From positions 11,601-75,600 of the forward strand of contig JAJXUV010000010.1 of the NCBI GenBank assembly GCA_021782495.1: 64,000 nt of DNA, read 5' to 3'. The notes below the pieces were generated by a model. The model worked only from the letters and a program-made list of their open reading frames with translations. It ran no database searches and was not told where the DNA came from. How positions within the stretch are numbered: the stretch's first letter is position 1; each line of letters starts with the position of its first letter. A program made the translations under genes and the position numbers. Origin of the DNA: Pseudomonadota bacterium (GTDB taxonomy: Bacteria > Pseudomonadota > Gammaproteobacteria > UBA1113). Of the stretch, positions 5,017 to 22,336 are shown piece after piece.

Positions 5017-5910
5017 TCAATTTTTAGCATACAAGAGATAATATAGTCTTATTAATAAGATAGACAGAATGATAATGAAAATAAATTCGAAAATAGAGTT
5101 AATGCCTACATAAACACCTTGCATAAAGTAAACGCACAAGGGTATGAGTGCCATTAAGAGTGATGTCTTTACTGCACCCAAATTAGAAATGGCTTTTTGT
5201 ACACTATATACCGGAAAAATAGTGCTCAAGAGAGATATGAATAAAAAATCATACCATTTATCTATTGTAATGTGATACAAGTCAATCTGAGTAGGTAAAA
5301 AATAACAAATTACTAATGAGAAAATCGTTATAAAATAAAATCTGGTACATACCACATCAATCCATGGTACTTGATTTTGTCGCTGTAACTTATCAGTGTA
5401 GCAAATGTATAGAGAGGAAACAAAGGCGGATAAAACAGTGCAAAATAATCCCATAAAAACTTCTAAATACGGAGGGTGTTTTACAGCATAGTACCCGGAA
5501 AGAACAAAAAGAATTAGAGTTATAGAGGCTAGAGTATAAACGGAATTTTTTTTGACAGCTTGTTTCTTAATGAAAATCGAAAACAACGGCAGAGAACCCA
5601 TAAATACAGATATAAATATGGAGGGTTGAATTAGTTTTAAGCCATAAAAGGTTCCGAGCCAGATAATCAGTGTGAGTGTATTTGTTGTAAAAAATGCTTT
5701 TTTATTATTATAAAAAAAAGCATAAGCCGAGACAATTCTCTTTATATTGATTAGATTAAACAAAAAAATGCATAGAGAAAATGCAATAAAAGTAAGTAAA
5801 AAAGTAGGTATGTTTTTCTCAGCATCATGAATTAAAACCATAGAGGCTGCTGTAGATAAAATGTAAATAGTCACTGGGCTATAATCTGATAAACGAATCT
5901 TATTAAACAT
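5017..5910 (-). CDS. polytopic membrane protein, DMT/EamA-like transporter by size and topology
   Basis: 297 aa with about 10 hydrophobic segments in two halves and a GGAGG SD. Very AT-rich. Lies 30 nt downstream of the ATP-grasp gene on the same strand. Confidence 0.55.
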   Translation of the reverse strand: MFNKIRLSDYSPVTIYILSTAASMVLIHDAEKNIPTFLLTFIAFSLCIFLFNLINIKRIVSAYAFFYNNKKAFFTTNTLTLIIWLGTFYGLKLIQPSIFISVFMGSLPLFSIFIKKQAVKKNSVYTLASITLILFVLSGYYAVKHPPYLEVFMGLFCTVLSAFVSSLYICYTDKLQRQNQVPWIDVVCTRFYFITIFSLVICYFLPTQIDLYHITIDKWYDFLFISLLSTIFPVYSVQKAISNLGAVKTSLLMALIPLCVYFMQGVYVGINSIFEFIFIIILSILLIRLYYLLYAKN

Positions 5911-5940
5911 AAGGCCTCCTAAAATAGGGAAATGGTTGTT

Positions 5941-7167
5941 CTATAGCAGGGAATGAAAGTCAAAATTTATATCCGCATACTGATCGCTGCTTAATAAGAA
6001 TTTTGCAGCAATGTCAACTATAGAGCTACTTTTTTGGTCACTTTTAATCGGGTTGCTTATCCATAATCTAGAAATCTTAGATTTAAAACTTTGTTTATTT
6101 ATTTTTTCTAGGAAAGGGTGCTGATAAGGAACAGAGGCTTGCAGACAATACAGATTAGGAATTCGATGAAAACTTATGTCCCTACCTAATTTTGAAGCAA
6201 GGTCTAAAGTAAATAAATTTATGCCATACATTTCTTCGTACATATAAGCTATCGAGATTCCTGCTGGTCGTACTGCTGCTTCAAGGAAAAAAATATTCCC
6301 ATTTGCGTTAACGAATTGCTCAACATGGTATGTTCCATTCACTTTTCCCAGAGTTTCAACAGCCAAAATAGCATGCGCATCTAGTTTTTTCTTCAGATCT
6401 TCATTCTCCTGAAGTACTAAACTGGCAATAATTTTTCCTTTGGCAAACAGGTGGTTTGGGTATGTGTATTGACATGTCTCAATAAAAATCACTTTGCCAT
6501 CTTTTAAAACAATATCTGTATGATAAAGATTTCCATCTATGAATTCTTCAACTTCATACTCAAGAGTGCAGTAAATTTGTTTAGATAAAAAACCCATAAA
6601 ATCATCTACATTATTTACGATAAAAACACCAAAACTCCCGGCATATGCACGTGGTTTAAGGACAAAAGGGAGTCCAAATACATTGGTTAAATAGCAGTAA
6701 TAATCAAGGGCGGCATTTTCAATTTTTTCTTTTGAGAAATTTTCATACTTTGGAATGCGAACACCGGTGTTTTCAAGGGCCTTTTTCATGATTAGTTTGT
6801 CTTGAAATTTAGAAGTGAGGGATTCACTGGGTCCAGGAATACCTAATTCATCTCGTAGTCTCCCGATTAAACTTATATTGATTTCATCGATGCAGATTAA
6901 AGAAAAGGGTTCTTCTTTGAAATTTAATGTCATTTCCTTCGTAACTATTCTTTTTATTTCTTCATACCCGAATTTAACCAGTGGGCCATCGCTGCAAAGT
7001 TTATCAGATATAGCGTATATCTTTGAAAAAAACTTTTTTTTATCTTTTGGGAAAAAATCGAGGCATGATTCTAAAATGATTGCAAAATATCTATCGCCAT
7101 TTTCAAAGATTTTTTCAAAGTCATAATTATCCATATACTTGTGAGAAATAAATCCAACGACAGTCAT
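5941..7167 (-). CDS. ATP-grasp domain protein (carboxylate-amine/L-amino-acid-ligase-like)
   Basis: 408 aa. Central ATP-grasp-like block (FVLKPRAYAGSFGVFIV ... EEFIDG ... FLEAAVRPAG). AT-rich. Confidence 0.7.
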   Translation of the reverse strand: MTVVGFISHKYMDNYDFEKIFENGDRYFAIILESCLDFFPKDKKKFFSKIYAISDKLCSDGPLVKFGYEEIKRIVTKEMTLNFKEEPFSLICIDEINISLIGRLRDELGIPGPSESLTSKFQDKLIMKKALENTGVRIPKYENFSKEKIENAALDYYCYLTNVFGLPFVLKPRAYAGSFGVFIVNNVDDFMGFLSKQIYCTLEYEVEEFIDGNLYHTDIVLKDGKVIFIETCQYTYPNHLFAKGKIIASLVLQENEDLKKKLDAHAILAVETLGKVNGTYHVEQFVNANGNIFFLEAAVRPAGISIAYMYEEMYGINLFTLDLASKLGRDISFHRIPNLYCLQASVPYQHPFLEKINKQSFKSKISRLWISNPIKSDQKSSSIVDIAAKFLLSSDQYADINFDFHSLL

Positions 7168-7281: not shown

Positions 7282-8466
7282 CTATTCCATAAATACCTGT
7301 AACTGTTGTATGGCTTCTTCCAAAGTTTCCATACTGCTGGCAAAAGACAAGCGAATGCAAGAGGGTGCTCCGAAAGGGGTGCCCGCGACGGTCGCCACTT
7401 TGGCTTCGGTGAGAAGATCTTCAGCTAACTGCACATCGCTTTCGTACTTCGGGTTATCTTTCAACCAAGCATTAAAATTCGGCAATAAATAAAAAGCGCC
7501 TTGGGCTGAAATGCATTCCACGCCCGGCAACGTGTTTAAAGCTTGTAGCAGGAAATCATGGCGTTTTCTAAAAGCTTGATTCATCGTCTTAATGCTGTCT
7601 TGTGGACCGGTGATGGCTGCAAGTGCTGCCATTTGTGCAATCGAATTGGGGCAAGAGGTCGTTTGAGATTGAATGTTTTTCATTTGTGAAATAACTTCTG
7701 CAGGGCCTGCTGCGTAACCGATTCGCCAGCCGGTCATCGCATAACTTTTGGAAGCGCCATTGATCACGATGGTTCTATCTTTTAATTCAGGACACACCAT
7801 CAACACATTGGCAAAGGCATTGTCGCTCCAAATCAAGTGTTCATAAATGTCATCGGATAAAATAATGACCTGGGGATGTCGAAGCAACACTTCTGCTAGC
7901 GCTTTTAATTCTTTCGCACTGTAAATCATCCCGGTGGGATTATTGGGACTGTTGATCATAAAGACACGCGTGCGGGGGGTAATCGCTGCTTCTAATTGCT
8001 CAGCCGTTATTTTAAATTGTTGGGTGTGATCGCTGTGGATCAATTTAGGCACGCCTTCAGCCAAGATGACCATGTCTGGGTAAGAAACCCAATAAGGTGC
8101 TGGAATCAAGACTTCATCGCCCGGATTTAAAATAGCACACAAGGCATTGGCAATCGCTTGCTTCGCGCCCGAAGTGACGATGATTTCATTGCCCGCATAA
8201 GTCAATTGATTGTCGCGTTTGAATTTCTCTTGAATGGCAGCTTTCAAAGGCGCAATCCCATCCACGGCCGTGTATTGTGTGAAATTGTCGTGAATAGCGG
8301 CAATTGCGGCTTCTTTGACGTAATCTGGCGTCGGGAAATCGGGTTCGCCCACACTAAGGCTTAATACTGGGATCCCCTTGGCTTCTAAGGCCCTGGCTTT
8401 AGCATTCATGGCCAAAGTCGGAGAGGGTTGTAATTTGTTTAATCTGTGGGCAGTTGTGATGGTCAT
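7282..8466 (-). CDS. class I PLP-dependent (aspartate-type) aminotransferase
   Basis: SKSYAMTGWRIGY with the PLP lysine, NSPNNPTG and GEPDFPTP motifs. ATG at 8466 (MTITTAHRLN) has a GAGG SD. The ORF is open to 8502. Confidence 0.9.
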   Translation of the reverse strand: MTITTAHRLNKLQPSPTLAMNAKARALEAKGIPVLSLSVGEPDFPTPDYVKEAAIAAIHDNFTQYTAVDGIAPLKAAIQEKFKRDNQLTYAGNEIIVTSGAKQAIANALCAILNPGDEVLIPAPYWVSYPDMVILAEGVPKLIHSDHTQQFKITAEQLEAAITPRTRVFMINSPNNPTGMIYSAKELKALAEVLLRHPQVIILSDDIYEHLIWSDNAFANVLMVCPELKDRTIVINGASKSYAMTGWRIGYAAGPAEVISQMKNIQSQTTSCPNSIAQMAALAAITGPQDSIKTMNQAFRKRHDFLLQALNTLPGVECISAQGAFYLLPNFNAWLKDNPKYESDVQLAEDLLTEAKVATVAGTPFGAPSCIRLSFASSMETLEEAIQQLQVFME

Positions 8467-8579
8467 AGGGGCCTCGTTTAAGAAATTTTTTAACTTTAGC
8501 AATATCTTATCATATAATTTTTAGTGGTTGTATATATCCTTCGAAATACATAAAGTTTTCATTTTAAACAACAAATAAG

Positions 8580-8607
8580 TTGACAAATTGTACTCTTATG
8601 ATATACT
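8580..8607 (+). promoter_or_regulatory. sigma70-like promoter of the RHH-MazF pair
   Basis: TTGACA (8580-8585), a 16-nt spacer, then TATACT (8602-8607), about 30 nt upstream of the antitoxin start. Confidence 0.45.
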
Positions 8608-8638
8608 ATTGGTATAAGTTTATAGAAGAAAAGGGGCA

Positions 8639-8884
8639 ATGATGTCATCTTTGATTTCGGTACGTTTAAATGATGAAGTGCTTGCAGATATGCGCCATAA
8701 AGCACAACGCTTGCATTTGTCTCAAGCAGAATATATTCGTGAAGCCATTCTTCGTTTTAATGTGGTATTGGAGCAAAAAGAAAGAGCAGAGCGTTTAAAA
8801 AAAGCGAGCTTGAAAGTGCGTGCTAATAGTATGGAAGTAAATAAAGAATTTAGTGAGATAGAGCATGACCCTGATGTTGAATAA
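8639..8884 (+). CDS. ribbon-helix-helix (CopG-like) antitoxin
   Basis: 81 aa. N-terminal RHH pattern ISVRLNDEVLADMRHKAQRLHLSQAEYIREAI. Overlaps the toxin gene by 20 nt. Confidence 0.7.
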   Translation: MMSSLISVRLNDEVLADMRHKAQRLHLSQAEYIREAILRFNVVLEQKERAERLKKASLKVRANSMEVNKEFSEIEHDPDVE

Positions 8885-9218
8885 GGGTGAAATTTGGCTT
8901 GCCAATTTAAATCCAAGTAGAGGTACCGCACCTGGAAAAATGCGGCCTGTTTTGATAGTACAAGATCAAGCTCTTTTAGAGACTAAACATCCGTCTACAC
9001 TCATCATTCCTTTAACAACGGCCTTAATTGAGGGGGCGGCACCTTTAAGGCTTAGAATTACTGCAAGAGATCGCTTAAAACAAGATTCTGATTTACTCAT
9101 CGATCAAATTCGCGCTGTTGACAATAAGCGTTTATTAGAAGGTCCGTTGACTCTGTTAAACGAGGATATTCTCAAAATAGTTTATAAAGCGGTTTCTGAA
9201 GTAATGGGGATGGTGTGA
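8865..9218 (+). CDS. MazF/PemK family mRNA interferase toxin
   Basis: 117 aa. GEIWLANLNPSRGTAPGKMRPVLIVQ is the characteristic PemK/MazF N-terminal block. Confidence 0.8.
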   Translation: MTLMLNKGEIWLANLNPSRGTAPGKMRPVLIVQDQALLETKHPSTLIIPLTTALIEGAAPLRLRITARDRLKQDSDLLIDQIRAVDNKRLLEGPLTLLNEDILKIVYKAVSEVMGMV

Positions 9219-9240
9219 AAAATTTCAACAAAATACTATT

Positions 9241-9262
9241 ATGAAACGATCATTGCAATTAA
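9241..9262 (+). repeat. left copy of the 22-nt direct repeat duplicating the uvrB start (attL-like)
   Basis: atgaaacgatcattgcaattaa is identical to 20336-20357. Here it opens only a 10-codon dead-end ORF (MKRSLQLTEQ*). Confidence 0.9.
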
Positions 9263-9380
9263 CTGAGCAATAAAAACAGGTAAGTGTTGCTAGCTCGTTT
9301 AAATAGAAATTCACATTACTTTAAATAGTGAATACTGATTTCCTAAATGATACTGTTGTACAAACAAATTCTACATTTTA

Positions 9381-9389
9381 TGTTATAAT
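9381..9389 (+). promoter_or_regulatory. extended -10 element (TGtTATAAT) upstream of the NRPS
   Basis: tgttataat lies about 105-150 nt upstream of the NRPS start candidates. No clear -35. Confidence 0.3.
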
Positions 9390-9531
9390 TCTCCGGATAA
9401 GTTAATTTATTTTATACCGATCGGACACTTTTAATATAAATATAACGACAAACAGTGGATTTTTATTATTATAATATTGGGCGGTTAAGCAATATGAATA
9501 CTTCAGGAAAACTATTATTAAAAAAAAAGCT

Positions 9532-12500
9532 TTGATATTAGGCGAAAGCAAATTATGCATCCAATGCATTGAATATTTATTGAATGATGATCATTGGGAG
9601 CTAATTGCTATTGTATCACAGGATCCCATTGTTATTCAATGGTGTAATCAACATTCAGTTTTGGTTTTACCTTTTGCTAGATTGGATGAAATTCATGATA
9701 CGGAATTTTATCTTTTTAGCGTTGTGAATTTCAATATCATTCCAGAATCATTTTTTAAACAGAATAAAATTATTCTGGCTTTAAATTATCATGATAGTTT
9801 ACTGCCTAGATACGCGGGTCTGAATAGTACCACGTGGGCTATTGTTGAGAATGAAAAAATACACGGGGTTAGTTTACATTGTATCAGCTCTGAAATTGAT
9901 GCAGGAGATATTATTTTACAAGCTGAAATTCCCATTGAGAAGAATGAAACTGCAATATCTCTCAATCTAAAATGTAGTGAGAAGTTACTTCTTTTATTTC
10001 AAGAAGCTATTCATCAAATCAATGCTGGGACAATCGCTACCTTCAAACAAGACCGTGTACACAGAACTTACTATGGTCTTGAATATATCCCTGAAAATTA
10101 TGCCTTGATGAATGGGATTAAAGATTTTTCTTTTTTAGATAGATTGCGCCGAGGATTGACCTTTGGTGAGGGCTATAGCAATAGCGTTGCCAGCCTTAAA
10201 ATTTTTTTGCATGATAGATTTTATATATTAAGTGATCCGAAGCCAAGCGTATGGACTGCAGAGAAATTTGAAAAAAATGCAAAAGAATCTCTTTTTAACA
10301 CCATCTTAGACATTTATGGCCATAAAACCAATGTTCATATTACTTTTAAAGAGCTATTGCCAGCTTATAACCTGAGTCAAGAAGATTTATTGTATCTTTC
10401 TCAGCTAAAGGCACTTGAACCCAAACAAAAACAATCTATTTCAGACTATCTAAATGAAGAGGCATCGCTTTCTATTTTAGATCCTGTGATGAACCGTGAT
10501 GCTTTAGAGATCTATACCAAAGAAATAATGCTTCCTGATGCGATGGAACCTGAGACCGCTTTAGCGATAGTTTATGTCGTTTTGACCCGGTTTTTTGAAG
10601 AAGATTTCATTTTTTCTGTGTATAATTTTGATGGAACAATCCCAGACTCTCTCAAAAACCTCATTGAAAAGCGGTGTTTTATCAAAGCGAGTCGAGAAAA
10701 GCTAACAGAAACTTTTGCAGAACTCAAAGAGTCTGTAAAAAAAATGAAAGACGATGCTTATCTTTTAGTGAAGGATTTTGGGTATCGCTATCATCTGTCT
10801 TTGTTAACGGACATTGCGGTGACTTTGAATAGGAAAGATGAATACATTGATAAACACAAGATCAAAATCAATGTGGAAAGTCATTCACTTACTATTGAAG
10901 GCCGGAATGAATATGCATTGCAGATGAGTAGTATTGGCAATTGTTTAGAAGTGCTTTTTTGTAAATACCTTAAAAATAATTTTCTAGGTGAAAATTTAAG
11001 AACCATTCAATTATTAAGCGATGCAGAGTACCAGAAAATAGTGTATGAGTGGAACAAAACAGAGGTGGATTGCCCAGATAATAAAACCCTTCACCAATTG
11101 TTTGAAGAGCAAGTTAAAAGAACGCCTAATAATATTGCCGTAGTTTATCAAGATAGGCAATTGAGTTATAGTGAATTGAATGCGAAAGCAAATCAGTTGG
11201 CGCGTTATATTTCCAGGATACATCCGATTAGCCCAGATAATTTCATCGCACTGTGCTTGGATAGAAGTGAATATCTGATAATCAGTATTCTTGCGGTATT
11301 AAAGTGTGGAGCCGCGTATGTTCCCATTGATCCAAATTATCCTGTTAATAGAATACGCTATATTTTAGAAGATGCGAAACCAGCGCTTGTGCTAACGAAT
11401 GAACGGCACAATGCATCTTTAAAAAATATTAAATCGGGTTTATTGTTAGTCAATGTGGACAGTCCGGAAAATTCAAATAGAATACCCAAAGAAAAAACAG
11501 ATAACCTAAACACACAGGTTACGAGTACTCATTTAGCTTATGTTATCTATACGAGTGGCACAACGGGCCAACCAAAAGGAGTCTTACAGAACCATGGAAA
11601 TGTGGTCAGTTTATTTCATGCAACAGAGAATCTATATCAATTTGATACACAAGACGTATGGACATTATTTCATTCATACGTATTTGATGTCAGCATATGG
11701 GAAATATGGGGCGCATTCATTTATGGGGGAAAATTAATCGTACCAAGTTATGAACAAATTAAAGATTTGGAAGATTTTTATGAATTGTGTTGTCGCTTTA
11801 ATATTACTGTTTTAAATCAAACGCCCTCTGTATTTTATCAATTCAGCGAAATTATCTTTAAAAGACAGGGTGCATCATTAAAAAAATTGCGGTATATAAT
11901 ATTTGCAGGTGAGAAACTAGATTTGATGCAATTAAAATCGTGGTTTCATCATTTTCCCTCAAATAATCCAAAACTGGTCAATATGTACGGTATCACTGAA
12001 ACAACCATACATACGACGTATAAAATTATCAAGAAAGAGGAGTTAAGCAATAAATCTCTTATTGGAAGATGTCTACCTGATAAAAAGGGATATGTGTTAG
12101 ACGCGGATTTAAATATATTACCGACGGGGGCAATTGGTATTTTATATGTCGGTGGTTCAGGCATTACCCGAGGGTACCTCAATCAACTTGATTTAACCCA
12201 CAGAAAAATTATTCCTAATTTATTTCAAACCTTGGATGAAAAGCATCACCATAAAAATGCTTTCTTATACGACAGTGGGGATAAAGTATGTTATTTACCC
12301 AATGGCGAATTAGAATATATTGGTAGAAATGATACCCAAGTTAAGATCCGTGGGTTTAGAATTGAATTAGCTGAAATTGAAGCAATTATCAACAGTTGTT
12401 CTGGTATTCAGCAAAGTATTGTATTGATGAAAGAGCTTCAAGCCGGGTTAGGCGGTCAAGCTTCCAAAAAATATTTAATAAGTTATTATACCGCAGAATT

Positions 12501-15500
12501 TGAATTGGAAAAAAAAGCCATATTAGAGCATATCGCCCAATATTTACCTGATTATATGATTCCAACGGCGCTTATGTATCTTAAAAAATTTCCTTTAACC
12601 ATTAATGGAAAATTAGACTACAGAGCGCTTCCGGACATATTTTTAACCAATAGCGCCACCTATGTCGCACCCCGTAATGAATTAGAATTGAATTTATGCG
12701 CCGTTTTTGCCAATGTGCTCGGGTTGGATAAAAATAAAATTGGCATTAAAGATAACTTTTTTAACTTGGGGGGTGACAGTATTTTTGCCATTAAAGTTGT
12801 CACGCAACTAAACAGTCTCTATCAGCTTAAATTACAAGTCAATGATATTTTTACCTACAAAACAGTGGAACTGCTAGCTGCTGTATTAGAAACAGATAAT
12901 TCTTTTCAAAATGAGTCAATTCAAAATTCAAATTATCAGAAATTTTCCCTTATTTCTGATGCATTTAATCTTATCGATGACGCAGTAGAAGATGTTTATC
13001 CAGCGAGTTATTTGCAAATGGGGATGATTTTTGAATCCACACGCGATAACCATCAAGGAACTTATCATGATGTATTTTGTTACACCATAGAGAGTATTTT
13101 TAATCATGAAAAATTTATTTCTATTTGGAATAAGCTGGTTGCCAAACACGAACTGCTCAGAGCGAAATTTGTCCCGTCCAGTTATGGGTATAATGTCGTC
13201 ATTGCGAAAAAAAATCTTGTACAAGTTCAAGCGTTTGAGGAACGAAATTCCTTAGACATTTTGGCTGAAGAAAAATTACGTGACATTAATCAAAATGAAA
13301 CGGGTCTCTATAGATTGATCGTGAATAAAAAAAAACAGCGATTTGATTTTATTTTTTCCTTTCATCACGCGATAGTGGATGGGTGGAGTGTTGCTTCTCT
13401 AGTTAATGAATTTATTCAAGCCTATGTTTTTGACAAAGATGTTATCCATGATTTGTCTAATATCAGTTATGGGGAATTCATACAAAATGAAAGAAAAGCC
13501 ATTCAGGATCAAACTAAATTTCAGTTTTGGAAAGATTATTTGGCTGATTTTCAAGTGCCAAGATTTGGTTGGAAAGTTGAAAATGAAAGTTCAGGCAGAG
13601 GTACTTTCAATGTGCGTCGTGAGTTGAGTCAAAAAGAAGTCAATAAACTCTATTCTTTAGCCAATGAGTATGCCGTTAGTGTAGACACGATATTTTTAGA
13701 AGCCTACTTTAGAACGTTGGCACAATTTTCTGATCAAGAAGATATTATCGTGGGGTTGGTAGTCAATAATCGTTTGGAAAGAGAAGGAGGGGATAGATTA
13801 ATCGGATTATTTTTAAATACAATACCATTTCGGGTTAAAGTAAACAGTGCATTGAGTGCAAAAGTTATTTTTAATGAAAAAATAAACCTTTATAAGTATA
13901 AAGATTTACCCTATGGCTGTATAAAGTCAATTTTTAAGGATAAAATTTATGACTTTGCATTTAACTTTACACATTTTCATTCCTTGACAGATAGTTATCC
14001 GTACATTTCAAATTTTGTTGCATTTGAACGAACCAGTATATCTGCATTATTGAATGTTTATCAAAAAGAAAATGCCTTCACCTTGTTGTTGGCTGCCCAT
14101 AGTGATTATATAAATCAAACTTATCTAGATTATTTTATGAGCTATTATCAATTTAATTTAAATTTGATTCTTGATGGCAGTCCAGATAAAACCATTTTGA
14201 CCCAAGAAGATTATATAAAATTAACTCGAACTTGGAATGCAACGACAGCGCCGTATTCTGAAAATAAAACGATACAGCAACTTTTTGAAGAGCAAGCGCT
14301 AAAAACACCGAATAAGACAGCGGTTGTTTATGAGAACAGAGCCTTCACTTATCAAGAATTAAATGAGCTTTCTAATCAGTTAGCACATTTTATAAAAACA
14401 CAATACAAACTTTGTCTAGAGGATTTGGTGATCTTATTTTTAGAGAGAAGCGAAGCTATTCTCCTAGCCATATTAGCTGTTTTTAAAGCAGGTGCTGCTT
14501 ATGTTCCTATAGGTACTGATTATCCTAAGGATAGGATCCAATATATTCTCGAGGATACTAAAGCAAGACTTATATTGTCCGATGATAGGAATATAAGCAA
14601 GTTAGAGCATATTAAACCAAGCACTCAGAATATCTCCTCAGTATTATCTTTGGATAATTTTTATAAAAATTTGAAACACACAGATTTTTCGAGAGCAAAT
14701 CTTCAAACAGAACTCACAAGCAAGCATCTTGCTTATGTTATGTATACCAGTGGAACCACAGGGTATCCTAAGGGGGTTATGGTTGAGCATAAAAGTATTG
14801 TTAATATAATACAACAGTTGGCTAGTCTATACGATGTGAACCTCGGAGATAGAATATCTGCATTCTGTGCCTATACTTTTGATGTGTCGGTTTCAGAATT
14901 TTTTGCGCCTTTAATCATAGGGGCTACTGTTTATATTCTGCCTGAATTTTTAAGAAGAGAGGTAGAAGAGTTAAGCTTATATATTCGAACACACAAAATT
15001 AATCATTTGTATTTGCCACCGGTCTTATTGGCGCTGTTGCCCAGAGTAAATTACCCCGATTTACGCCGAATAATTTATGCTGGAGAAGCCTGTGATCAAA
15101 AAACAGGTGCATATTGGTCCAGACATTTTGAGTTGTTTAATTATTATGGTCCCACAGAAACGACGATATATGCAATAGGAAAGCAAGTTATCGAAGGAGA
15201 CGTTCAGTTGATTGGTAAGCCTTTGAATAATTATAAAGTATATGTTCTGGGTAAAAATTTAAATTTATTACCTTGTGGTGCAATAGGGGAATTGTATATC
15301 AGTGGTGTAGGCCTTGCTAGAGGTTATTTAAATCAACCAGCATTAACACAAGAAACATTCATTGCTAATCCCTTTGCATCTGCAGAAAATAATGCGCATG
15401 ATGATCGATTGTATAAAACGGGAGATTTAGTCAGATTTACACTAAATGGGGATATTCATTATCTTGGACGAGTGGACAAGCAAGTTAAGATAAGGGGCTA

Positions 15501-18003
15501 TAGAATTGAGCTTAGTGAAATAGAAAGTGTGATAAATCGTCACGCTAATATTAAACAAAGTTTGGTTATTTTAGAAGAAGATCATCGTTCTGATATAGAA
15601 AATACCGACAAATATTTAATAGCCTATTATGTAAAAGAAATAAAGGGGACCGGAAGTGATCCCACAGATTTTGTTAAAAATTGGCAAGAAATCTATGATT
15701 TAACTTACAGAGGATTAGATAGGGAAGATTTGAAAAATAATTTTGTTGGATGGAATAGTTCTTATACTGGAACACCTATTTCGAAGGCGCAAATGTGTGA
15801 ATGGCGAGATGAAATCGTCACTAAACTGCGACAATTAGTTCTGAAACGGGTGCTCGAAATCGGTTGTGGAAATGGATTGATACTTTTTAACTTAATAGAT
15901 GAATGTAAGTATTATCGTGCCTTCGATTTTTCCGCATCCGCTGTGCAGCATATTCAAAAATGGGTTAGACATTTTTGTTTTGCTGATAAATGTGAAGTGT
16001 CTCTATCTGAAGCAAGCGATATTGTATTTGAAAGCTTGCCAAAAGACTACGATACAGTCATTCTGAATTCAGTGGCCCAATATTTTCCCACTTTAGATTA
16101 TTTGGAAAATATTTTAATTAAAATCATAGAGAATATGAAAGTTTCAGGACAGATTTTCATAGGCGATGTTCGGGATTTTAGGTTGTTAGAGTGCTTTTCT
16201 TATTCAGTATTACGCTTTAAGCAAAAAACTGTTGGCATTTCGGATATTGAGTATTTTAAAATAAAAGAAAAAGAACTATTGATTTCACCAGAGTATTTTC
16301 TGTACCTTAAACATCGCCATAGTAGTATATCTTATATTGAGCTATTACCAAAATTAGCCGATTCAGTCAATGAAATGAATTGTTATAGATATGATGTTGT
16401 TTTACATATCAATAAGCACAACATGAAAAATGTTTTCACTGTCGATGAAAATAATTTTTTAAAAACAACAAATATCCAAGAAACCCTCAATATGAATAAC
16501 GAAGAAATCCTCTATTTAAAATATCCAAATATAAGAATTTACGAAGATTATATAAATTGTCAAAGCTTATATGGCCATGACTCAGGTGAGTTTATTCTGG
16601 AAAAAAATAAGGCTTTATTTAACATTACTCAGTTGACAAAGATTTTCAATGAATTTGGGTATGAGCCAAAATTTTATTTGGGTATCGTTGAGCCGCTTTA
16701 TCTGAATATCATAGCATGTAAAAATAAAAAGTATGCCGCGAAGACTTTTGCTCTTGATTGCCAAGATGTTTTTTTAATAAAAAAACGTTTTTCGAATGAT
16801 CCGTTGAAAAATATGGGATTATTAAACAATAAATACACCGAAAAATTAAAAAACTATTTAGAAAGTCAATTGCCCAATTATATGCTCCCCAGATATTTAA
16901 TTCTGCTTGATCGCATACCCACTAATTCAAACGGAAAAATTGATTACACGAGCTTACCTAAGCCGAAATTTAATTTTAGTAGTCATTATGAAGCACCAAA
17001 AACAGAATTAGAAAAGCAACTTAGTGAAATCTTTTCTAAAGTACTGAATTTGTCTCAGAATAAAATAAGCGTTTGTGATAATTTTTTTGAGATAGGAGGT
17101 AATAGCATTTTAGCAATCCAACTGGTTTCTATGATAAATTCAAAATTAAATTATACACTTAAGGTGGTAGATGTATTTTCTATGCGAACTATTCAAAATC
17201 TTTCCAATCATTTATCTTCTGTAAAAGATAATTCATCTTACATTGCAAATTTAAATCACGTTTATAATAAGTTAAATATGTTTATGATACATCCCGCTTT
17301 TGCTGGCTCTGAAGTTTATATTAAATTATCTGACCAATTGGTGGACAATTATAGTTGTTATGGACTAGATAATTATAATTTGTATCATTCTCAGAAAATA
17401 ACCGATATTCAAGAACTAGCCCATTTTTATTTGAATTTAATAGATAAAGTTAGAACGGAAACGCATCAAGAAAATAAACCTTATCTATTACTAGGTTGGT
17501 CTTTAGGGGGGCAAATTGCATTGAGTATTGCTTCCATTTTGGAGCAATGCGGTTATGAGGATATTTTTGTCATTCTTATTGATACGGTTTATCCTGATAA
17601 AATGCTGATGGACTATTTATCGCGAGTGGGTTTAAATGAATTGCAATTAAATTTTTTTAGGGAACAACTTAGATTTGAACCGAATTATCTAGCTAAAATT
17701 AAAAATAACTTTGATTGTGATCGGTATTTGTCTTCGCAAGCCCTGAATATTCGACTAAAATATACTCAGATTTTATTGTTTAAAGCCATGCAAAAGGAAA
17801 GTGTATTTTTTTCGAAAAATGATAGGTTCCTGAAGGAATATATTAGGGGGTTATCTTACAATAATATAGATAAAATAATTGACATTAATAAGATTGGTTT
17901 AGTAAAATTAGAAAATGCAACCCATTTTAATATTTTGGAGCGAAATGAATTCATAAAGACTCATATTTCAGTCTTTATGAATCAAATGGAAGTTTTTGGA
18001 TAG
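9532..18003 (+). CDS. non-ribosomal peptide synthetase: F-(C-like remnant)-A-T-C-A(MT)-T-TE
   Basis: Domain landmarks by nt:
- Formyltransferase HDSLLPRYAGLN, about 9532-10130.
- A1 core LAYVIYTSGTTGQPKGV at 11533, then NMYGITETT and NGKLDY.
- T1 FFNLGGDS, Ser codon 12778-12780.
- C domain HHAIVDGWS at 13363-13389.
- A2 LAYVMYTSGTTGYPKGV at 14728.
- SAM-MT motif VLEIGCGNGL at 15850-15880, inserted between A8 and A9.
- T2 FFEIGGNS, Ser codon 17104-17106.
- TE GWSLGG at 17494-17511.
The start is TTG at 9532; see the frameshift finding. Confidence 0.93.
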   Translation: MILGESKLCIQCIEYLLNDDHWELIAIVSQDPIVIQWCNQHSVLVLPFARLDEIHDTEFYLFSVVNFNIIPESFFKQNKIILALNYHDSLLPRYAGLNSTTWAIVENEKIHGVSLHCISSEIDAGDIILQAEIPIEKNETAISLNLKCSEKLLLLFQEAIHQINAGTIATFKQDRVHRTYYGLEYIPENYALMNGIKDFSFLDRLRRGLTFGEGYSNSVASLKIFLHDRFYILSDPKPSVWTAEKFEKNAKESLFNTILDIYGHKTNVHITFKELLPAYNLSQEDLLYLSQLKALEPKQKQSISDYLNEEASLSILDPVMNRDALEIYTKEIMLPDAMEPETALAIVYVVLTRFFEEDFIFSVYNFDGTIPDSLKNLIEKRCFIKASREKLTETFAELKESVKKMKDDAYLLVKDFGYRYHLSLLTDIAVTLNRKDEYIDKHKIKINVESHSLTIEGRNEYALQMSSIGNCLEVLFCKYLKNNFLGENLRTIQLLSDAEYQKIVYEWNKTEVDCPDNKTLHQLFEEQVKRTPNNIAVVYQDRQLSYSELNAKANQLARYISRIHPISPDNFIALCLDRSEYLIISILAVLKCGAAYVPIDPNYPVNRIRYILEDAKPALVLTNERHNASLKNIKSGLLLVNVDSPENSNRIPKEKTDNLNTQVTSTHLAYVIYTSGTTGQPKGVLQNHGNVVSLFHATENLYQFDTQDVWTLFHSYVFDVSIWEIWGAFIYGGKLIVPSYEQIKDLEDFYELCCRFNITVLNQTPSVFYQFSEIIFKRQGASLKKLRYIIFAGEKLDLMQLKSWFHHFPSNNPKLVNMYGITETTIHTTYKIIKKEELSNKSLIGRCLPDKKGYVLDADLNILPTGAIGILYVGGSGITRGYLNQLDLTHRKIIPNLFQTLDEKHHHKNAFLYDSGDKVCYLPNGELEYIGRNDTQVKIRGFRIELAEIEAIINSCSGIQQSIVLMKELQAGLGGQASKKYLISYYTAEFELEKKAILEHIAQYLPDYMIPTALMYLKKFPLTINGKLDYRALPDIFLTNSATYVAPRNELELNLCAVFANVLGLDKNKIGIKDNFFNLGGDSIFAIKVVTQLNSLYQLKLQVNDIFTYKTVELLAAVLETDNSFQNESIQNSNYQKFSLISDAFNLIDDAVEDVYPASYLQMGMIFESTRDNHQGTYHDVFCYTIESIFNHEKFISIWNKLVAKHELLRAKFVPSSYGYNVVIAKKNLVQVQAFEERNSLDILAEEKLRDINQNETGLYRLIVNKKKQRFDFIFSFHHAIVDGWSVASLVNEFIQAYVFDKDVIHDLSNISYGEFIQNERKAIQDQTKFQFWKDYLADFQVPRFGWKVENESSGRGTFNVRRELSQKEVNKLYSLANEYAVSVDTIFLEAYFRTLAQFSDQEDIIVGLVVNNRLEREGGDRLIGLFLNTIPFRVKVNSALSAKVIFNEKINLYKYKDLPYGCIKSIFKDKIYDFAFNFTHFHSLTDSYPYISNFVAFERTSISALLNVYQKENAFTLLLAAHSDYINQTYLDYFMSYYQFNLNLILDGSPDKTILTQEDYIKLTRTWNATTAPYSENKTIQQLFEEQALKTPNKTAVVYENRAFTYQELNELSNQLAHFIKTQYKLCLEDLVILFLERSEAILLAILAVFKAGAAYVPIGTDYPKDRIQYILEDTKARLILSDDRNISKLEHIKPSTQNISSVLSLDNFYKNLKHTDFSRANLQTELTSKHLAYVMYTSGTTGYPKGVMVEHKSIVNIIQQLASLYDVNLGDRISAFCAYTFDVSVSEFFAPLIIGATVYILPEFLRREVEELSLYIRTHKINHLYLPPVLLALLPRVNYPDLRRIIYAGEACDQKTGAYWSRHFELFNYYGPTETTIYAIGKQVIEGDVQLIGKPLNNYKVYVLGKNLNLLPCGAIGELYISGVGLARGYLNQPALTQETFIANPFASAENNAHDDRLYKTGDLVRFTLNGDIHYLGRVDKQVKIRGYRIELSEIESVINRHANIKQSLVILEEDHRSDIENTDKYLIAYYVKEIKGTGSDPTDFVKNWQEIYDLTYRGLDREDLKNNFVGWNSSYTGTPISKAQMCEWRDEIVTKLRQLVLKRVLEIGCGNGLILFNLIDECKYYRAFDFSASAVQHIQKWVRHFCFADKCEVSLSEASDIVFESLPKDYDTVILNSVAQYFPTLDYLENILIKIIENMKVSGQIFIGDVRDFRLLECFSYSVLRFKQKTVGISDIEYFKIKEKELLISPEYFLYLKHRHSSISYIELLPKLADSVNEMNCYRYDVVLHINKHNMKNVFTVDENNFLKTTNIQETLNMNNEEILYLKYPNIRIYEDYINCQSLYGHDSGEFILEKNKALFNITQLTKIFNEFGYEPKFYLGIVEPLYLNIIACKNKKYAAKTFALDCQDVFLIKKRFSNDPLKNMGLLNNKYTEKLKNYLESQLPNYMLPRYLILLDRIPTNSNGKIDYTSLPKPKFNFSSHYEAPKTELEKQLSEIFSKVLNLSQNKISVCDNFFEIGGNSILAIQLVSMINSKLNYTLKVVDVFSMRTIQNLSNHLSSVKDNSSYIANLNHVYNKLNMFMIHPAFAGSEVYIKLSDQLVDNYSCYGLDNYNLYHSQKITDIQELAHFYLNLIDKVRTETHQENKPYLLLGWSLGGQIALSIASILEQCGYEDIFVILIDTVYPDKMLMDYLSRVGLNELQLNFFREQLRFEPNYLAKIKNNFDCDRYLSSQALNIRLKYTQILLFKAMQKESVFFSKNDRFLKEYIRGLSYNNIDKIIDINKIGLVKLENATHFNILERNEFIKTHISVFMNQMEVFG

Positions 18004-18014
18004 GAGCCAGAAAA

Positions 18015-20306
18015 ATGTTAAATAGCAGCGATCTATCAAGCAGTTCACAAATGATTAAGCAAATTATTGATCTGGTCGATACGAGTATTTATTGGAAGGA
18101 TAAGGAAGGCCGTTATTTGGGGTGCAATCAATACGTGTTAAAAATTGCAGGCCTTAACAGTCTGGATGAAATCCTCGGAAAAACCGATTTTGAACTCGTG
18201 TGGAAAAGAGAAGCATCTAAAATAAAAGAAATTGATGATTGGGTGATGCGCACGGGAAATTCTTATCGAGGAGAAGAAGCCATATCTACCCATGATGGTA
18301 AGCTTCTACTCGGTTTTTCAATAAAAAATCCACTGCTAGACAAGAATGGTCAGATTATTGGTGTTATAGGTACGTCCGTTGATATTACCGCTAAAAAAGA
18401 AGCTGAGCGCTTAGCATTAGAAAATATAGCTTATAAAACTATTCAGGAGCAAGAACGAAGATTTAGGCAAATTATTAATGTGGTGGATGTTAGTATTTAT
18501 TGGAAGGATAGAGAGGGGCGTTATTTAGGCTGTAATCAGTATGTGTTGAACATTGCGGGTCTTAACAGTCTAAATGAAATCCTCGGAAAAACCGATTTTG
18601 AACTCGTGTGGAAAAAAGAAGCACCTAAAGTAAAAGAAATAGATGACTGGGTGGTCCGCACAGGAAGCCCTTATCGTGGTGAAGAATTTATATCTGTTGA
18701 GCATACTAATCAGGTAGCAGCATTTTTTACAATAAAAAACCCCTTATTTGATGATGATGGTCAAGTGATTGGTATTGTGGGAACTTCAATTGACATTACT
18801 GCTAAAAAAGAAGCCGAAGTGCTAAAACTTGAAGCTGAAAAACACAAAATAATTGAAGAACAACAACGCGAATTTCGAAAGATCGTAGAACAAGTAGCAC
18901 ATGATATTCGATCACCGGTTGGTGCTCAGAGAATGAATTTAAATGAGTGTAAACATTATTTGCCGGAATTATATCGAGTTGCTTTTACCAAATCTCTAAA
19001 CCGAATCGATGATGTCGCTTATCGATTGATGAGCACAGTCAATCCAGGAGAGAAAGCAAGAGCATATCGTGCGAATCCAGTCAAAGAACCCACGCTTATT
19101 TCCAATGAAATCTTCGAAGTGATCGCGGAAAAACGTCATGAATATCGCGAGAAAACGATAGACTTTTGTGCGCATTTCACCGAATCCGCGTATTTTGCTT
19201 TTTTGAATATCAATACTTTGGATTTTAAACGCATGCTGTCGAATCTTATCAATAATGCAGTTGACGCCATTCAAGATAAAATCGGTCGAGTTGATGTTCA
19301 CATGGATGCGAGTGAGCTGCAAGTCCAAATTACGATCCAGGATAATGGCATGGGGATGCCCGATTCAGTTAAAGAAAAAATTTTAAATAACATCGCGGTG
19401 ACTGCTAGTAAAACAGATGGACATGGCATTGGCTTTGGGCAAATTCGAGATACTTTAAAGGAAGCTGAAGGTGAATTGGCGATTGAATCGATTAAAGGAG
19501 TTGGCACTAAAATCATACTCTCTTTTCCTCGAGTGGATAGCCCGAATTGGATTGCCACTCAAATAGAGCTATTTTCAGACGACATGATTGTGGTTTTAGA
19601 CGACGATGATTCTATCCACGATGCTTGGGAGGCGCGATTTCAAAAAGTAGCGCCAAACATTCCACGCCACCATTTTAAAGGGGGGAAAGAAGCTATTCTT
19701 TTTATTAACAATTTTGATGATGCTGCGAAGAAAAAATTATTGTTACTGACCGATTATGAATTGTTAGAACAAGAGTTGCATGGTTTAGAAGTGGTCGAAA
19801 AAACGGGAATAAAGCGTTCTATCTTGGTGACGAGTCACAACGACAATCCCAAGGTAACAACCTTGGCCGAATCCCTTCATACCAAAATACTGCCCAAACC
19901 TTTGGCAGCACATGTACCGATTGAATTCAAAGTAGAATTAGAAACAGAAGCGCTACGTAAAGTCGATGCCGTTTATGTAGATGACGATGAAGATCTTTTG
20001 GCAGCAGTAACCCGCGCCATGCAAACGAGGAATAAAGTGATTGACACTTATTCTTCGGTTTACAAATTTTTAGAAAATAAAGCCGTTTACCCTAAAGACG
20101 TCAAGATTATCCTAGACAACCAATTTCAAAGGGAATACGCTCGAGGCATAGAAATAGCACAAGAATTGCACGAAGCGGGTTATACACGTCTTTATTTGTT
20201 TTCAGGGGAATATTTTGATTCTAGCCAGGATGGGGTTATCCCCCCTTATTTAACGGTTATTTTTAAAACGGATATTGATCGTCTTTTTGAAGTATTGGAT
20301 GAATAA
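18015..20306 (+). CDS. hybrid sensor histidine kinase (PAS-PAS-HisKA-HATPase-REC-REC)
   Basis: Two near-identical PAS-like modules. H-box VAHDIRSP, N-box NLINNAVDA, G-boxes DNGMGMP and GHGIGFG. Two receiver-like regions follow (VVLDDDDS...LLLLTDYEL...KILPKP and VYVDDDED...KIILDNQ). Starts 12 nt after the NRPS stop. Confidence 0.85.
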   Translation: MLNSSDLSSSSQMIKQIIDLVDTSIYWKDKEGRYLGCNQYVLKIAGLNSLDEILGKTDFELVWKREASKIKEIDDWVMRTGNSYRGEEAISTHDGKLLLGFSIKNPLLDKNGQIIGVIGTSVDITAKKEAERLALENIAYKTIQEQERRFRQIINVVDVSIYWKDREGRYLGCNQYVLNIAGLNSLNEILGKTDFELVWKKEAPKVKEIDDWVVRTGSPYRGEEFISVEHTNQVAAFFTIKNPLFDDDGQVIGIVGTSIDITAKKEAEVLKLEAEKHKIIEEQQREFRKIVEQVAHDIRSPVGAQRMNLNECKHYLPELYRVAFTKSLNRIDDVAYRLMSTVNPGEKARAYRANPVKEPTLISNEIFEVIAEKRHEYREKTIDFCAHFTESAYFAFLNINTLDFKRMLSNLINNAVDAIQDKIGRVDVHMDASELQVQITIQDNGMGMPDSVKEKILNNIAVTASKTDGHGIGFGQIRDTLKEAEGELAIESIKGVGTKIILSFPRVDSPNWIATQIELFSDDMIVVLDDDDSIHDAWEARFQKVAPNIPRHHFKGGKEAILFINNFDDAAKKKLLLLTDYELLEQELHGLEVVEKTGIKRSILVTSHNDNPKVTTLAESLHTKILPKPLAAHVPIEFKVELETEALRKVDAVYVDDDEDLLAAVTRAMQTRNKVIDTYSSVYKFLENKAVYPKDVKIILDNQFQREYARGIEIAQELHEAGYTRLYLFSGEYFDSSQDGVIPPYLTVIFKTDIDRLFEVLDE
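18051..18836 (+). repeat. in-frame tandem duplication (period 408 bp) encoding the two PAS modules
   Basis: Anchors 18078/18486 and 18168/18576 are both offset by 408 nt. The alignment includes a perfectly identical stretch of about 40 nt, gaaatcctcggaaaaaccgattttgaactcgtgtggaaaa. Confidence 0.85.
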
Positions 20307-20335
20307 CTGCGCTTATTGTAGTATAATAATCCTCT

Positions 20336-20357
20336 ATGAAACGATCATTGCAATTAA
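20336..20357 (+). repeat. right copy of the 22-nt direct repeat (authentic uvrB start, attR-like)
   Basis: atgaaacgatcattgcaattaa is identical to 9241-9262. Confidence 0.9.
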
Positions 20358-22336
20358 TTTCTCCCTTCAAACCACAAGGCGATCAAGCCACGGCTATTGC
20401 GACTTTAATCCAAGGCATCGAGGCGGGTTTGGCGCGTTTAACTTTATTAGGCGTGACGGGTTCGGGTAAAACTTTTACGATGGCAAATGTGATAGCGCAT
20501 TGTCAGCGCCCTGCCCTGATTATGGCACCAAATAAAACTTTAGCCGCTCAATTGTACGGCGAAATGCGCGAATTTTTCCCCAACAATGCCGTAGAGTATT
20601 TTGTTTCCTATTACGATTATTATCAACCTGAAGCTTATGTTCCTTCGACGGATACTTATATCGAGAAAGATTCTTCCATCAATGAGCACATTGAACAAAT
20701 GCGTTTGTCGGCGACCAAAGCTTTGTTAGAACGTCGTGATGTGATTATCGTTGCTACTGTGTCGGCGATTTATGGTTTGGGCGATCCCGAATCGTATTTT
20801 AGTATGGTGTTGCATTTAAGCCGAGGTGAACTCATCGATCAACACGAAATTTTAAGGCATTTGGCCGAATTGCAATACACGCGCAACGATGTGGAATTTA
20901 AACGCGGTACTTATCGTGTGCGCGGTGATGTGTTGGATATTTTTCCCGCCGATTCTGAAAAAGAAGCGGTGCGCGTAGAATGGTTAGGCGATGAAATCGA
21001 AGCTATTTATTATTTTGATCCCCTCACTGGGCAAATCAGTCAACGCATTCCTCGCGTAACGATTTTCCCCGGAAGCCATTATGTCACGCCGCGCAACAAA
21101 GTGGTGAATGCCGTGGACGCCATTAAAAATGAACTGCGCGATCGCCTTCAGTATTTTCACAAAGAAAATAAATTGGTCGAAGCGCAACGTTTAGCAGAAC
21201 GGGTGAAATTTGATTTGGAAATGATGCAAGAATTAGGTTATTGCAGCGGTATCGAAAATTATTCGCGTCACCTTTCAGGCAGACAAGCAGGCGCACCTCC
21301 GCCCACTTTATTCGATTATTTACCCGCAGATGCCTTGTTGTTTATCGACGAATCGCATGTGACTATTCCACAAATTGGTGGCATGTATCGAGGCGACAGA
21401 GCGCGCAAGGAAAATTTAGTGCAGTATGGTTTTAGATTGCCTTCGGCTTTGGACAATCGACCTTTGCAGTTTGAAGAATTTGTAGAACGTTCACCCCAAA
21501 CGATTTATATTTCGGCAACGCCTGGAAATTATGAACTCGAGCAAGGAGAATCTTTAGCAGAACAAGTGGTACGGCCGACGGGTTTGGTCGATCCTCAAGT
21601 CATCATACGGCCTGTCACCCATCAAGTAGACGATTTATTATCGGAAATTCGCCATTGCGTGCTTGCGAAAGAACGAGTATTGGTAACGACTTTAACGAAG
21701 CGTATGGCAGAAGATTTGACGGAATATTTGGATGAGCATGGCGTGAAAGTGCGTTATTTACATTCTGATGTGGATACCGTCGAACGCGTCGAAATTATCC
21801 GCGATTTGCGTTTGGGCGTTTTTGATGTTTTGGTCGGCATTAATTTATTACGTGAAGGCTTGGACATTCCTGAAGTGGCATTGGTTGCCATTTTAGATGC
21901 CGATAAAGAAGGCTTTTTGCGATCGGAACGTTCTTTGATTCAAACCATTGGACGTGCTGCGCGTCACATCGAAGGCAGAGCCATTTTGTATGCAGATACG
22001 ATCACGGGTTCCATGCAGCGTGCTTTGGCAGAAACAGAACGGCGTCGTGCCAAGCAGGAAGAATACAATCGCAAACATGGGATCACGCCCAAAGGCATTG
22101 TCAAAAGTGTGCAGGATATTATGGAAGGTGCGCATGCACCTTTGTCTACGCGTTTGGCCAAAACACCAGTCAGCACACTTCAAATTCAGCGTTTAAGTCC
22201 TGCGGCTTTAGGTAAGAAAATCAAAGCTTTGGAAAAAGAAATGTTGGAGCAGGCACGGAATTTAGAATTTGAAAAAGCTATTCAATTGCGAGATGAGATC
22301 GAGTTATTAAAAAAACAAGAGTTTCATTCTTCTTAA
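20336..22336 (+). CDS. uvrB: excinuclease ABC subunit B
   Basis: 666 aa. Walker [21 protein letters not shown], and a helicase C-terminal block. The UVR domain at the C-terminus includes [13 protein letters not shown]. Confidence 0.97.

Follow-up and report, generated by a model that had tools for sequence, protein, structure and literature searches.

A duplicated uvrB start brackets a compositionally foreign peptide synthetase and sensor kinase block in a gammaproteobacterial genome

How does the start of a conserved housekeeping gene come to be present twice in a genome, with a peptide synthetase gene and a sensor kinase gene between the two copies? The question is raised by the uvrB locus of a Pseudomonadota bacterium of the gammaproteobacterial lineage UBA1113 (GenBank assembly GCA_021782495.1, contig JAJXUV010000010.1, positions 11,601 to 75,600 of the forward strand). 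The window analysed is this whole stretch of 64,000 nt, and positions are counted from its first letter. [quoted passage not shown] An insertion, its foreign third-position base composition and a repeat beyond chance were confirmed. The scar of a now integrase-less element is the best available and most economical reading, but an incomplete one: it leaves a neighbouring mazEF toxin-antitoxin (TA) pair unexplained, and the left copy does not lie at the edge of the inserted DNA.

The sequence TATGAAACGATCATTGCAATTAA (23 nt) was found exactly twice in the window, at 9240–9262 and 20335–20357 and both times on the + strand, in agreement with the predicted direct repeat of its 22-mer core without the preceding T (9241–9262 and 20336–20357). 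A third copy of the 22- or 23-mer was absent from the 64-kb window even when 3 mismatches were allowed, and 100 dinucleotide shuffles of the window yielded 0 matches to the pair. An independent repeat search of the window also listed this pair (family D15, 23 nt, 100 % identity). Exact direct matches between the two flanks reached 23 nt at most, compared with a maximum of 13 in 200 shuffles, and similarity ended abruptly on both sides of this longest match, the adjoining sequences being unrelated. The repeat pair is far beyond chance. Copy 1 opens the predicted dead-end open reading frame (ORF) of ten codons, ATG AAA CGA TCA TTG CAA TTA ACT GAG CAA TAA or MKRSLQLTEQ* (9241–9273). Copy 2 is the real start of uvrB, whose product was full length (666 aa) and contained all UvrB Pfam domains. 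The locus thus has the end repeats of an att-flanked island, identical in 23 of 23 nt and with one of them inside the regenerated target gene; an integrase inside or adjacent to the island was not present among the ORFs scanned. A palindrome within the repeat, ATTGCAAT, was considered as an enriched signal and rejected, with 5 occurrences in the window against 4.5 expected.

The 11.07 kb between the copies hold the gene of a very AT-rich nonribosomal peptide synthetase (NRPS) and a kinase gene only, as had been predicted; the kinase, a hybrid kinase in the original prediction, is a PAS kinase with a weak receiver-like tail. The NRPS stop and the kinase start are 11 nt apart, and 29 nt separate the kinase stop, ending at 20306, from the uvrB ATG at 20336. 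GC content and GC content at third codon positions (GC3) amounted to 0.33/0.28 for the NRPS gene and 0.39/0.33 for the kinase gene, compared with 0.44–0.47/0.40–0.49 for core genes; the block is compositionally foreign, which the original prediction had proposed to check by windowed GC and codon usage. The Pfam scan covered the ORFs of the island and the large ORFs at 1–8.5 and 20.3–33.6 kb, those at 33.9–64 kb being only listed. Together with an Rfam scan it sustained the claim that mobility genes are missing: no recombinase, transposase or relaxase, no pseudogene remnant and no tRNA gene was detected between the repeats, and Phage_integrase, resolvase and DDE domains were absent from the large flanking ORFs scanned. 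The sole tRNA gene of the window encodes tRNA-Lys (2562–2635), which was also its only Rfam match. Neither the island nor the mazEF cassette nor the whole insert has significant terminal inverted repeats (p = 0.17–0.64).

The nearest UvrB relatives were sought among 5.8 billion proteins. The four closest (loci L082, L086, L087 and L093) were 89, 86, 84 and 80 % identical over the full length. In all four, a gene for a class I/II aminotransferase lies directly divergent from uvrB, with start codons 48, 241, 42 and 51 nt apart, and each locus has a single copy of the 21-mer that opens uvrB. A contig scan with UvrB gave only relatives of at most 72 % identity, the peptide patterns being too conserved, and was used for a synteny count: the divergent pair, with an aminotransferase start within 600 nt of uvrB, was present in 28 gammaproteobacterial loci among 93 fetched. 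The adjacency of aminotransferase and uvrB is old and widespread. Because all four nearest relatives pair the aminotransferase directly with uvrB, the block is a lineage-specific derived insertion relative to them. The aminotransferase-uvrB spacers of all four lack mazEF as well. The lineage-specific DNA therefore comprises 8467–20335 and not just 9263–20334, and the left repeat lies inside it. The original prediction had proposed to look for relatives with mazF or its neighbour directly before uvrB and one copy of the repeat, and had counted an empty site that precise recombination does not explain as evidence against itself. Island-free loci with one 21-mer were indeed found, at only 80–89 % UvrB identity; mazEF was absent from them too, and none of them shows the exact pre-insertion site. 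Recombination between the copies would give mazF-uvrB, which is not the state of the relatives and was seen in none of them. The locus must therefore have arisen in two or more events, or by one composite import. Integration is not refuted by this, the relatives being different species. The mazEF pair, with a foreign-like GC3 (0.28 and 0.33), is an insertion as well, and the insertion history of the locus is composite. The features of the locus are collected in Table 1.

Table 1 Features of the uvrB locus, with positions in the window, and plasmid-like contigs carrying a related kinase
Feature	Position	Strand	Remarks
Class I/II aminotransferase, ancestral divergent neighbour of uvrB	7282..8466	-	Pfam Aminotran_1_2, E=8e-80
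AT-rich intergenic DNA	8467..8638		172 nt, GC 0.26, two + strand promoter-like sites
RHH-type antitoxin, MazE-like position	8639..8884	+	Pfam RHH_1/NikA-like; GC3 0.28
PemK/MazF-family toxin overlapping antitoxin	8865..9218	+	Pfam PemK_toxin, E=6e-21; GC3 0.33
Left direct repeat, attL-like	9240..9262	+	T + first 22 nt of uvrB
Relic 10-codon ORF, orphaned uvrB start	9241..9273	+	MKRSLQLTEQ*
AT-rich non-coding left arm upstream of NRPS	9263..9531		269 nt
Two-module NRPS	9532..18003	+	2823 aa; Pfam; GC3 0.28
Soluble PAS-PAS-HATPase sensor kinase, weak receiver-like C-terminus	18015..20306	+	Pfam
Spacer from kinase stop to right repeat	20307..20334	+	28 nt; TATAAT at 20322-20327; no Shine-Dalgarno sequence
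Right direct repeat, attR-like, functional uvrB start	20335..20357	+	
Intact uvrB	20336..22336	+	666 aa; Pfam UvrB_inter, UvrB, Helicase_C, ResIII, UVR
Plasmid-like contigs with 70 % kinase homologue	L096-L099		ENA ERZ27236847/897/874, GCA_027457625.1

The start of uvrB is conserved to an unusual degree. Its first 7 codons (21 nt) are identical on the nucleotide level in the window, L082, L086 and L087, and this block is the longest invariant run in uvrB. Across the same four lineages only 26 % of the degenerate codons with an invariant amino acid are also invariant in nucleotides (for six degenerate codons 0.263^6 ~ 3e-4), and the pairwise synonymous third-position identity of uvrB is 0.49–0.57. 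Upstream of the ATG, a TAnAAT box was present in all four relatives at −13 to −8, 7 nt before the start codon (TAGAAT, TATAAT, TACAAT and TAGAAT); in the window TATAAT occupies −14 to −9, 8 nt before the uvrB ATG. The promoter and start regions extend over 20322–20357 in the window, 1530–1569 in L082, 9985–10021 in L086, 7795–7832 in L087 and 2985–3021 in L093. A Shine-Dalgarno sequence upstream of uvrB was found neither in the window nor in the four relatives. The original prediction had observed this lack and the short distance from the kinase stop correctly, and had suspected that the expression of uvrB may depend on island sequence. Since the island-free relatives also lack a Shine-Dalgarno sequence and share the box, its absence is ancestral and not caused by the island. 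The conserved layout suggests that the uvrB mRNA is probably leaderless in this clade. Folding revealed no conserved RNA structure at the uvrB 5' ends: in centroid structures the 21-mer was unpaired in the window, L086, L087 and L093, and four of its bases were paired in L082. A likeness of 8496–8513 to the uvrB promoter of L087, noticed by eye, was not significant (p = 0.1–0.57), and a CTTATTG shared with L082 was not relied on.

A perfect direct repeat of 23 bp, with one copy restoring a conserved gene at its 5' end, bears the classical mark of conservative site-specific integration. The explanation we favour, at somewhat under an even chance, is that a decayed element resembling a cis-mobilizable element (CIME) entered the 5' end of uvrB by site-specific recombination and regenerated the gene. 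The 11.07 kb between the repeats would then be a horizontally acquired cargo module of an NRPS and its partner PAS kinase. It would have entered by conservative recombination of the tyrosine-integrase type between the uvrB start of the chromosome (attB) and a copy of this start on the element (attP). Such an exchange would have stranded the original start at the left junction, now the dead ORF of ten codons, and would have placed the start supplied by the element before the intact gene. The 28-nt right arm with the −10 box would probably have come along with this start; the match of its TATAAT to the TAnAAT box of the relatives is what an integrator into a 5' end must supply. The target may have been attractive as 21 nt invariant in the clade, probably as a consequence of a leaderless uvrB mRNA. 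The mazEF pair would be a separate foreign insertion at the same point, most simply the addiction-module remnant of an earlier element with a left att copy since lost, to which the NRPS-kinase module was added in tandem as the later arrival. Having no integrase, excisionase or transfer genes, the module would at present be fixed in the strain and movable only by a recombinase acting in trans. As the left copy is not under selection and still agrees in 23 of 23 nt, the event appears recent compared with the divergence from the nearest relative, at the third-position identities given above.

Several observations weigh against integration by a dedicated recombinase. Neither an integrase nor an excisionase or relaxase was present between the repeats or in the scanned flanks, and excision between the repeats would regenerate no observed state, as the relatives lack mazEF. 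The repeat, from −1 to +22, nearly coincides with the clade-invariant block from +1 to +21; its identity may therefore reflect conservation instead of a recombinase core and fits RecA recombination equally well. A third att copy beside the aminotransferase (8511–8533) matched by eye in 10 of 23 positions, a count taken with no shuffle control and about at chance level for DNA so rich in AT. Local alignments against shuffles did not single out the ancestral uvrB flank among the sequences beside the aminotransferase, upstream of copy 1 and upstream of copy 2 (p = 0.1–0.94). The contigs of this strain in four samples (SRR13178630, SRR13170451, ERZ27233572 and ERZ27236866) were 99.98–100 % identical with the same junctions, and an empty-site variant was not among them. 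No fetched contig contained an attP-like junction. The 21-mer was absent from 2.9 M viral contigs (IMG/VR) and from the plasmid-like contigs encoding a related kinase, and PLSDB plasmids gave no DNA match to the island or to the left arm with copy 1. Repeats above shuffle level were also lacking around the two other NRPS-kinase units with both flanks comparable (L100 and L102).

Evidence for mobility of the island was thus not obtained. The original prediction had left it either immobilised or mobilised in trans; neither the four samples with the same arrangement nor the search for an attP-like copy gave a sign of movement. The exact UvrB is on record on six contigs and the exact aminotransferase on nine, and the DNA of four contigs, one from each of the samples named, was compared. 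Excision would be recognised by an attB-type junction ...AAAATACTATTATGAAACGATCATTGCAATTAATTTCTCCC or an attP-type junction ...TAATAATCCTCTATGAAACGATCATTGCAATTAACTGAGCAATAAAA, also written AAAATACTATTATGAAACGATCATTGCAATTAATTTCTCCCTTC and TAATAATCCTCTATGAAACGATCATTGCAATTAACTGAGCAATAAAAAC. The left arm had no match in the related loci; for the right end of the island, the comparison covered the fetched loci and the remainder of the window. Two matches to the 21-mer in JGI metagenome contigs (L094 4903–4923 and L095 6703–6723) were discarded as chance; they lie in a eukaryotic long-terminal-repeat retrotransposon with gag, protease, reverse transcriptase and integrase.

The same arrangement might have arisen with no integrase ever involved, by a RecA-dependent single crossover of the Campbell type. 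A circular molecule, e.g., one derived from a plasmid, with the NRPS and kinase genes would have captured a uvrB promoter and 5' fragment from another member of the clade, and the exchange would have fallen within the sole identical stretch, the invariant 21–23 nt. The bounds of the repeat, which lie within 1 nt of the invariant block on each side, are as expected from this. Upstream of copy 2 there is what looks like a genuine uvrB-type promoter, with TATAAT 8 nt from the ATG, as would suit a fragment captured from a relative. The island has no integrase, and the same environment contains a related kinase on a plasmid. A length of 23 bp is close to the minimum for RecA-mediated exchange; recombination over such a length is very inefficient, however. 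Moreover, uvrB similarity at copy 1 does not continue beyond +22, and a fragment ending exactly there needs an earlier precise break. A plasmid or contig with such a uvrB fragment was not found. We consider this crossover unlikely, though it is the main competitor of the favoured reading. The at least two events demanded by the mazEF pair could be reduced to one if 8467–20335 was imported as a whole from a related but unsampled donor. It would have come in by homologous replacement anchored in the aminotransferase gene and uvrB, with the repeat made earlier in the donor. The entire segment is missing from all four relatives, its genes all have a low GC3 (0.28–0.33), the left repeat lies inside the lineage-specific DNA, and the flanking genes, conserved at 70–90 % on the amino acid level, would suffice to anchor recombination between close species. 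Yet such an import only shifts the origin of the repeat to another genome, and mazEF stands beside uvrB in no related contig; we hold it for quite improbable.

Two further explanations carry very little weight. Direct repeats around an insert are formally the signature of a target-site duplication, so transposition comes to mind, or else a local duplication of the uvrB start that is unrelated to the insert and brackets it by coincidence. Transposons and insertion sequences are recognised by a transposase, terminal inverted repeats and a duplication of 2–14 bp. Here the duplication has 23 bp, transposase and terminal inverted repeats are lacking, and a chance 23-mer is excluded. The lack of terminal inverted repeats and the length of the repeat both argue against transposition, and 23 bp is to our knowledge far longer than known target-site duplications; this origin is very improbable. 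Just as improbable is an ancestral NRPS-kinase block which the relatives deleted through recombination of the two repeats. Direct repeats readily give rise to such deletions, and the relatives keep exactly one 21-mer. Against this stand the strongly deviant GC3 of the block and the aminotransferase-uvrB adjacency shared by distant gammaproteobacteria; in addition, repeat deletion would leave mazEF, which the relatives lack, and four independent losses would be required.

Elements flanked by att sites but devoid of an integrase are a known type of event at the 5' end of genes; the target uvrB was previously unreported, and a search of the literature for att sites in uvrB brought up no relevant work. 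In the SXT element, according to what Hochhut and Waldor reportedly described in 1999, the SXT side donates a new promoter to prfC, and the core has 17 bp. The island of the window resembles SXT/R391, its nearest analogue, in lying at the 5' end of a conserved housekeeping gene and in having a short core duplicated as attL/attR. It differs in the lack of integrase, excisionase and conjugation genes, in size (11 kb versus 79–110 kb) and in the target gene, uvrB instead of prfC, the 5' end of which is the integration site of the SXT/R391 integrative conjugative elements (ICEs) (PMC4542580). Int_SXT, a conjugation module and the prfC target were all missing, and the likeness is confined to the logic of 5'-end integration. 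CIMEs have kept attL and attR and lost the genes for integration and transfer, and in the accretion scheme newly arriving elements go into the att copy beside the target gene (PMC5704250). The island has attL/attR-like repeats and no integration or transfer genes in the scanned ORFs. Like the CIMEs and accretion products of the streptococcal families of ICEs and integrative mobilizable elements (IMEs), it shows att-like bounds, no mobility genes and a tandem decayed mazEF insert as in the three-step scheme. In contrast to these, a cognate ICE or IME of the same att specificity was not found and the outermost att copy is missing; a derivation from an ICE by deletion would be hypothetical. The ssrA-integrated vcr islands of Dehalococcoides (PMC3146451) are an example of genomic islands at tRNA or tmRNA genes. 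Islands of this type resemble the locus in their cargo of low GC content, in a repeat that stems from the end of a conserved gene and in the regeneration of that gene. They use the 3' ends of RNA genes, however, and usually carry an integrase or have one nearby, whereas the 5' end of a protein gene was used here and no integrase was detected.

The cargo appears to be a functional unit. The NRPS has the domain order formyltransferase, adenylation (A), carrier (T), condensation, adenylation with an embedded methyltransferase, carrier and thioesterase, for which Pfam returned Formyl_trans_N, two AMP-binding, two PP-binding, Condensation, methyltransferase and Thioesterase domains. Its best full-length homologues were only 36–39 % identical. 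Homologues of the kinase with 65 % identity (L103 and L104) are each preceded by an NRPS, to which the C-terminal part of the island NRPS is 45–48 % identical (48 % for its C-terminal 780 aa and the NRPS of L103). The same order, NRPS then kinase, recurred in a metagenome-assembled genome of Coxiellaceae (L100/L101); altogether NRPS and PAS kinase were adjacent in four other lineages (loci among L100–L104). Two of the NRPS matches were fusions of NRPS and kinase (P0130 with 4514 aa and P0141 with 3216 aa). In an exhaustive kinase search, 8 of the top 150 cluster representatives had 2015–2401 aa with the kinase at the C-terminus. Seven of these combined an adenylation-carrier-reductase core with PAS-HATPase; in front of the core, six have a condensation domain and one a formyltransferase. 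The eighth, P0391, has the order A-T-reductase-PAS-HATPase, and nothing was detected on the N-terminal side of its adenylation domain. At least ten fused clusters were counted (P0130, P0141, P0385, P0390, P0391, P0409, P0411, P0415, P0440 and P0441), the NRPS release module before PAS-HATPase being usually C-A-T-reductase or, with a formyltransferase (F), F-A-T-reductase. A literature search for fusions of NRPS, PAS and histidine kinase found nothing relevant. Recurrent adjacency and fusions indicate that NRPS and kinase form a single functional unit and are not two independent pieces of cargo. Legionellales are known to have N-formylating NRPSs, as in the formyl-A-T-reductase NRPS cluster C of Legionella (PMC5126622), and the island NRPS has a formyltransferase domain, too. 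On the renieramycin plasmid of Candidatus Endohaliclona (Legionellales; MK748463), the NRPS genes are accompanied by a gene for a PAS kinase homologue of 30 % identity. The island NRPS differs from these in being bimodular with methyltransferase and thioesterase and is at most 39 % identical to anything found.

Elsewhere the unit was encountered in unrelated neighbourhoods, the next gene encoding AhpC, MscS, YkuD or an ABC transporter, and in none of L100, L102, L103 and L104 did it lie beside uvrB. A kinase homologue of 70 % identity was found on a plasmid-like contig; the study that yielded it also includes samples with the strain of the window. This contig also encodes a MobA/MobL relaxase, ParA, RepA_C and a HigB toxin, together with transposases of the IS6 and Tn3 families, resolvases and a small tyrosine recombinase. 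The unit at unrelated positions and the homologue on a plasmid-like contig point to a circulation of this cargo in the mobilome. For MazF, the best plasmid match (63 % amino acid identity) was on a plasmid of the Acanthamoeba endosymbiont Candidatus Paracaedimonas acanthamoebae. The plasmid-borne homologues of kinase and MazF suggest that the cargo and the TA pair belong to a mobilome of amoeba- or host-associated bacteria. A more far-reaching scenario is conceivable but, in our estimation, rather improbable: the invariant first 21 nt of a leaderless uvrB would serve as a dedicated att site in this Legionellales-like clade, at which small integrase-less islands were stacked repeatedly, an element with mazEF and then the NRPS-kinase module, each with a −10 box of its own that keeps the repair gene expressed and with the recombinase encoded elsewhere, e.g., on a plasmid. 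The cargo would then be a signalling unit not described so far, in which a small formylated peptide made by the NRPS is sensed by the coupled, often fused, PAS kinase.

The kinase gene contains a tandem duplication of its PAS unit with a period of 408–411 nt (18055–18287/18463–18695 with 84 % and 18314–18406/18725–18817 with 74 % nucleotide identity), at which one assembly contig breaks. Homologues of the kinase carry one, two or three PAS units, hence the PAS copy number varies in the family. In the left arm, three TAAAT(A/G)(A/G) motifs with an exact spacing of 22 nt lie at 9298–9350 (motif starts 9300, 9322 and 9344; TTTAAATAG at 9298 and 9320, CCTAAATGA at 9342). They could be operator or arm-type sites and are, alone, not significant in such AT-rich DNA; the GC content of 9219–9531 is 0.256. 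The TA pair, predicted to sit directly outside the left repeat, was located there and has the traits of type II systems of the MazEF/PemIK type, a PemK_toxin fold and an RHH_1 antitoxin gene overlapping by 20 nt. The toxin gene ends 21 nt before the left repeat (22 nt before the ATG of copy 1). The exact MazF of 117 aa had no record in a protein look-up; the start chosen by the gene caller gives 114 aa. Promoter-like sites on the + strand precede the pair at 8490–8518 (TTAACT-17-TATAAT) and, before mazE, at 8580–8607 (TTGACA-16-TATACT, 11 of 12 positions).

Spacers between aminotransferase and uvrB are occupied in other lineages as well. The 241-nt spacer of L086 is due to a palindromic element of 93 bp (9838–9930) with perfect terminal inverted repeats of 14 bp, TTGTCATCCTCGAC...GTCGAGGATGACAA. 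A copy lies 4.7 kb away at 5128–5219; with 92–93 bp both resemble miniature inverted-repeat transposable elements or repetitive extragenic palindromic sequences. The element probably explains the N-terminal extension of 30 aa called in P0369. Three distant lineages have other genes in the spacer: a deformylase-like gene and a lipoprotein gene in L022 (1302–2442), a gene for a secreted protein of 400 aa in L028 (8598–9989) and a two-component pair in L032 (2370–5023). The spacer has therefore been invaded repeatedly. Beyond the aminotransferase, the window contains another insert of low GC content (GC3 0.28) at 5017–7167 with genes for an EamA transporter and an ATP-grasp ligase. It sits between a rhodanese gene and the aminotransferase gene, which are adjacent in L086, and repeats above shuffle level did not flank it. 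A functional link of this insert to the NRPS is conceivable.

Should the integration reading be true, uvrB would be added, with its 5' end, to the few protein genes in which integrative elements use this end, with an example from uncultured amoeba-associated Legionellales, in which island biology is little known. Current understanding is not overturned; the locus provides a new instance with testable leads. Two by-products may matter more than the scar: the probably leaderless, nucleotide-invariant uvrB start with its fixed distance to the −10 box, and the recurrent unit of NRPS and PAS kinase, which offers a link of the Rosetta-stone type between small-peptide synthesis and two-component signalling.

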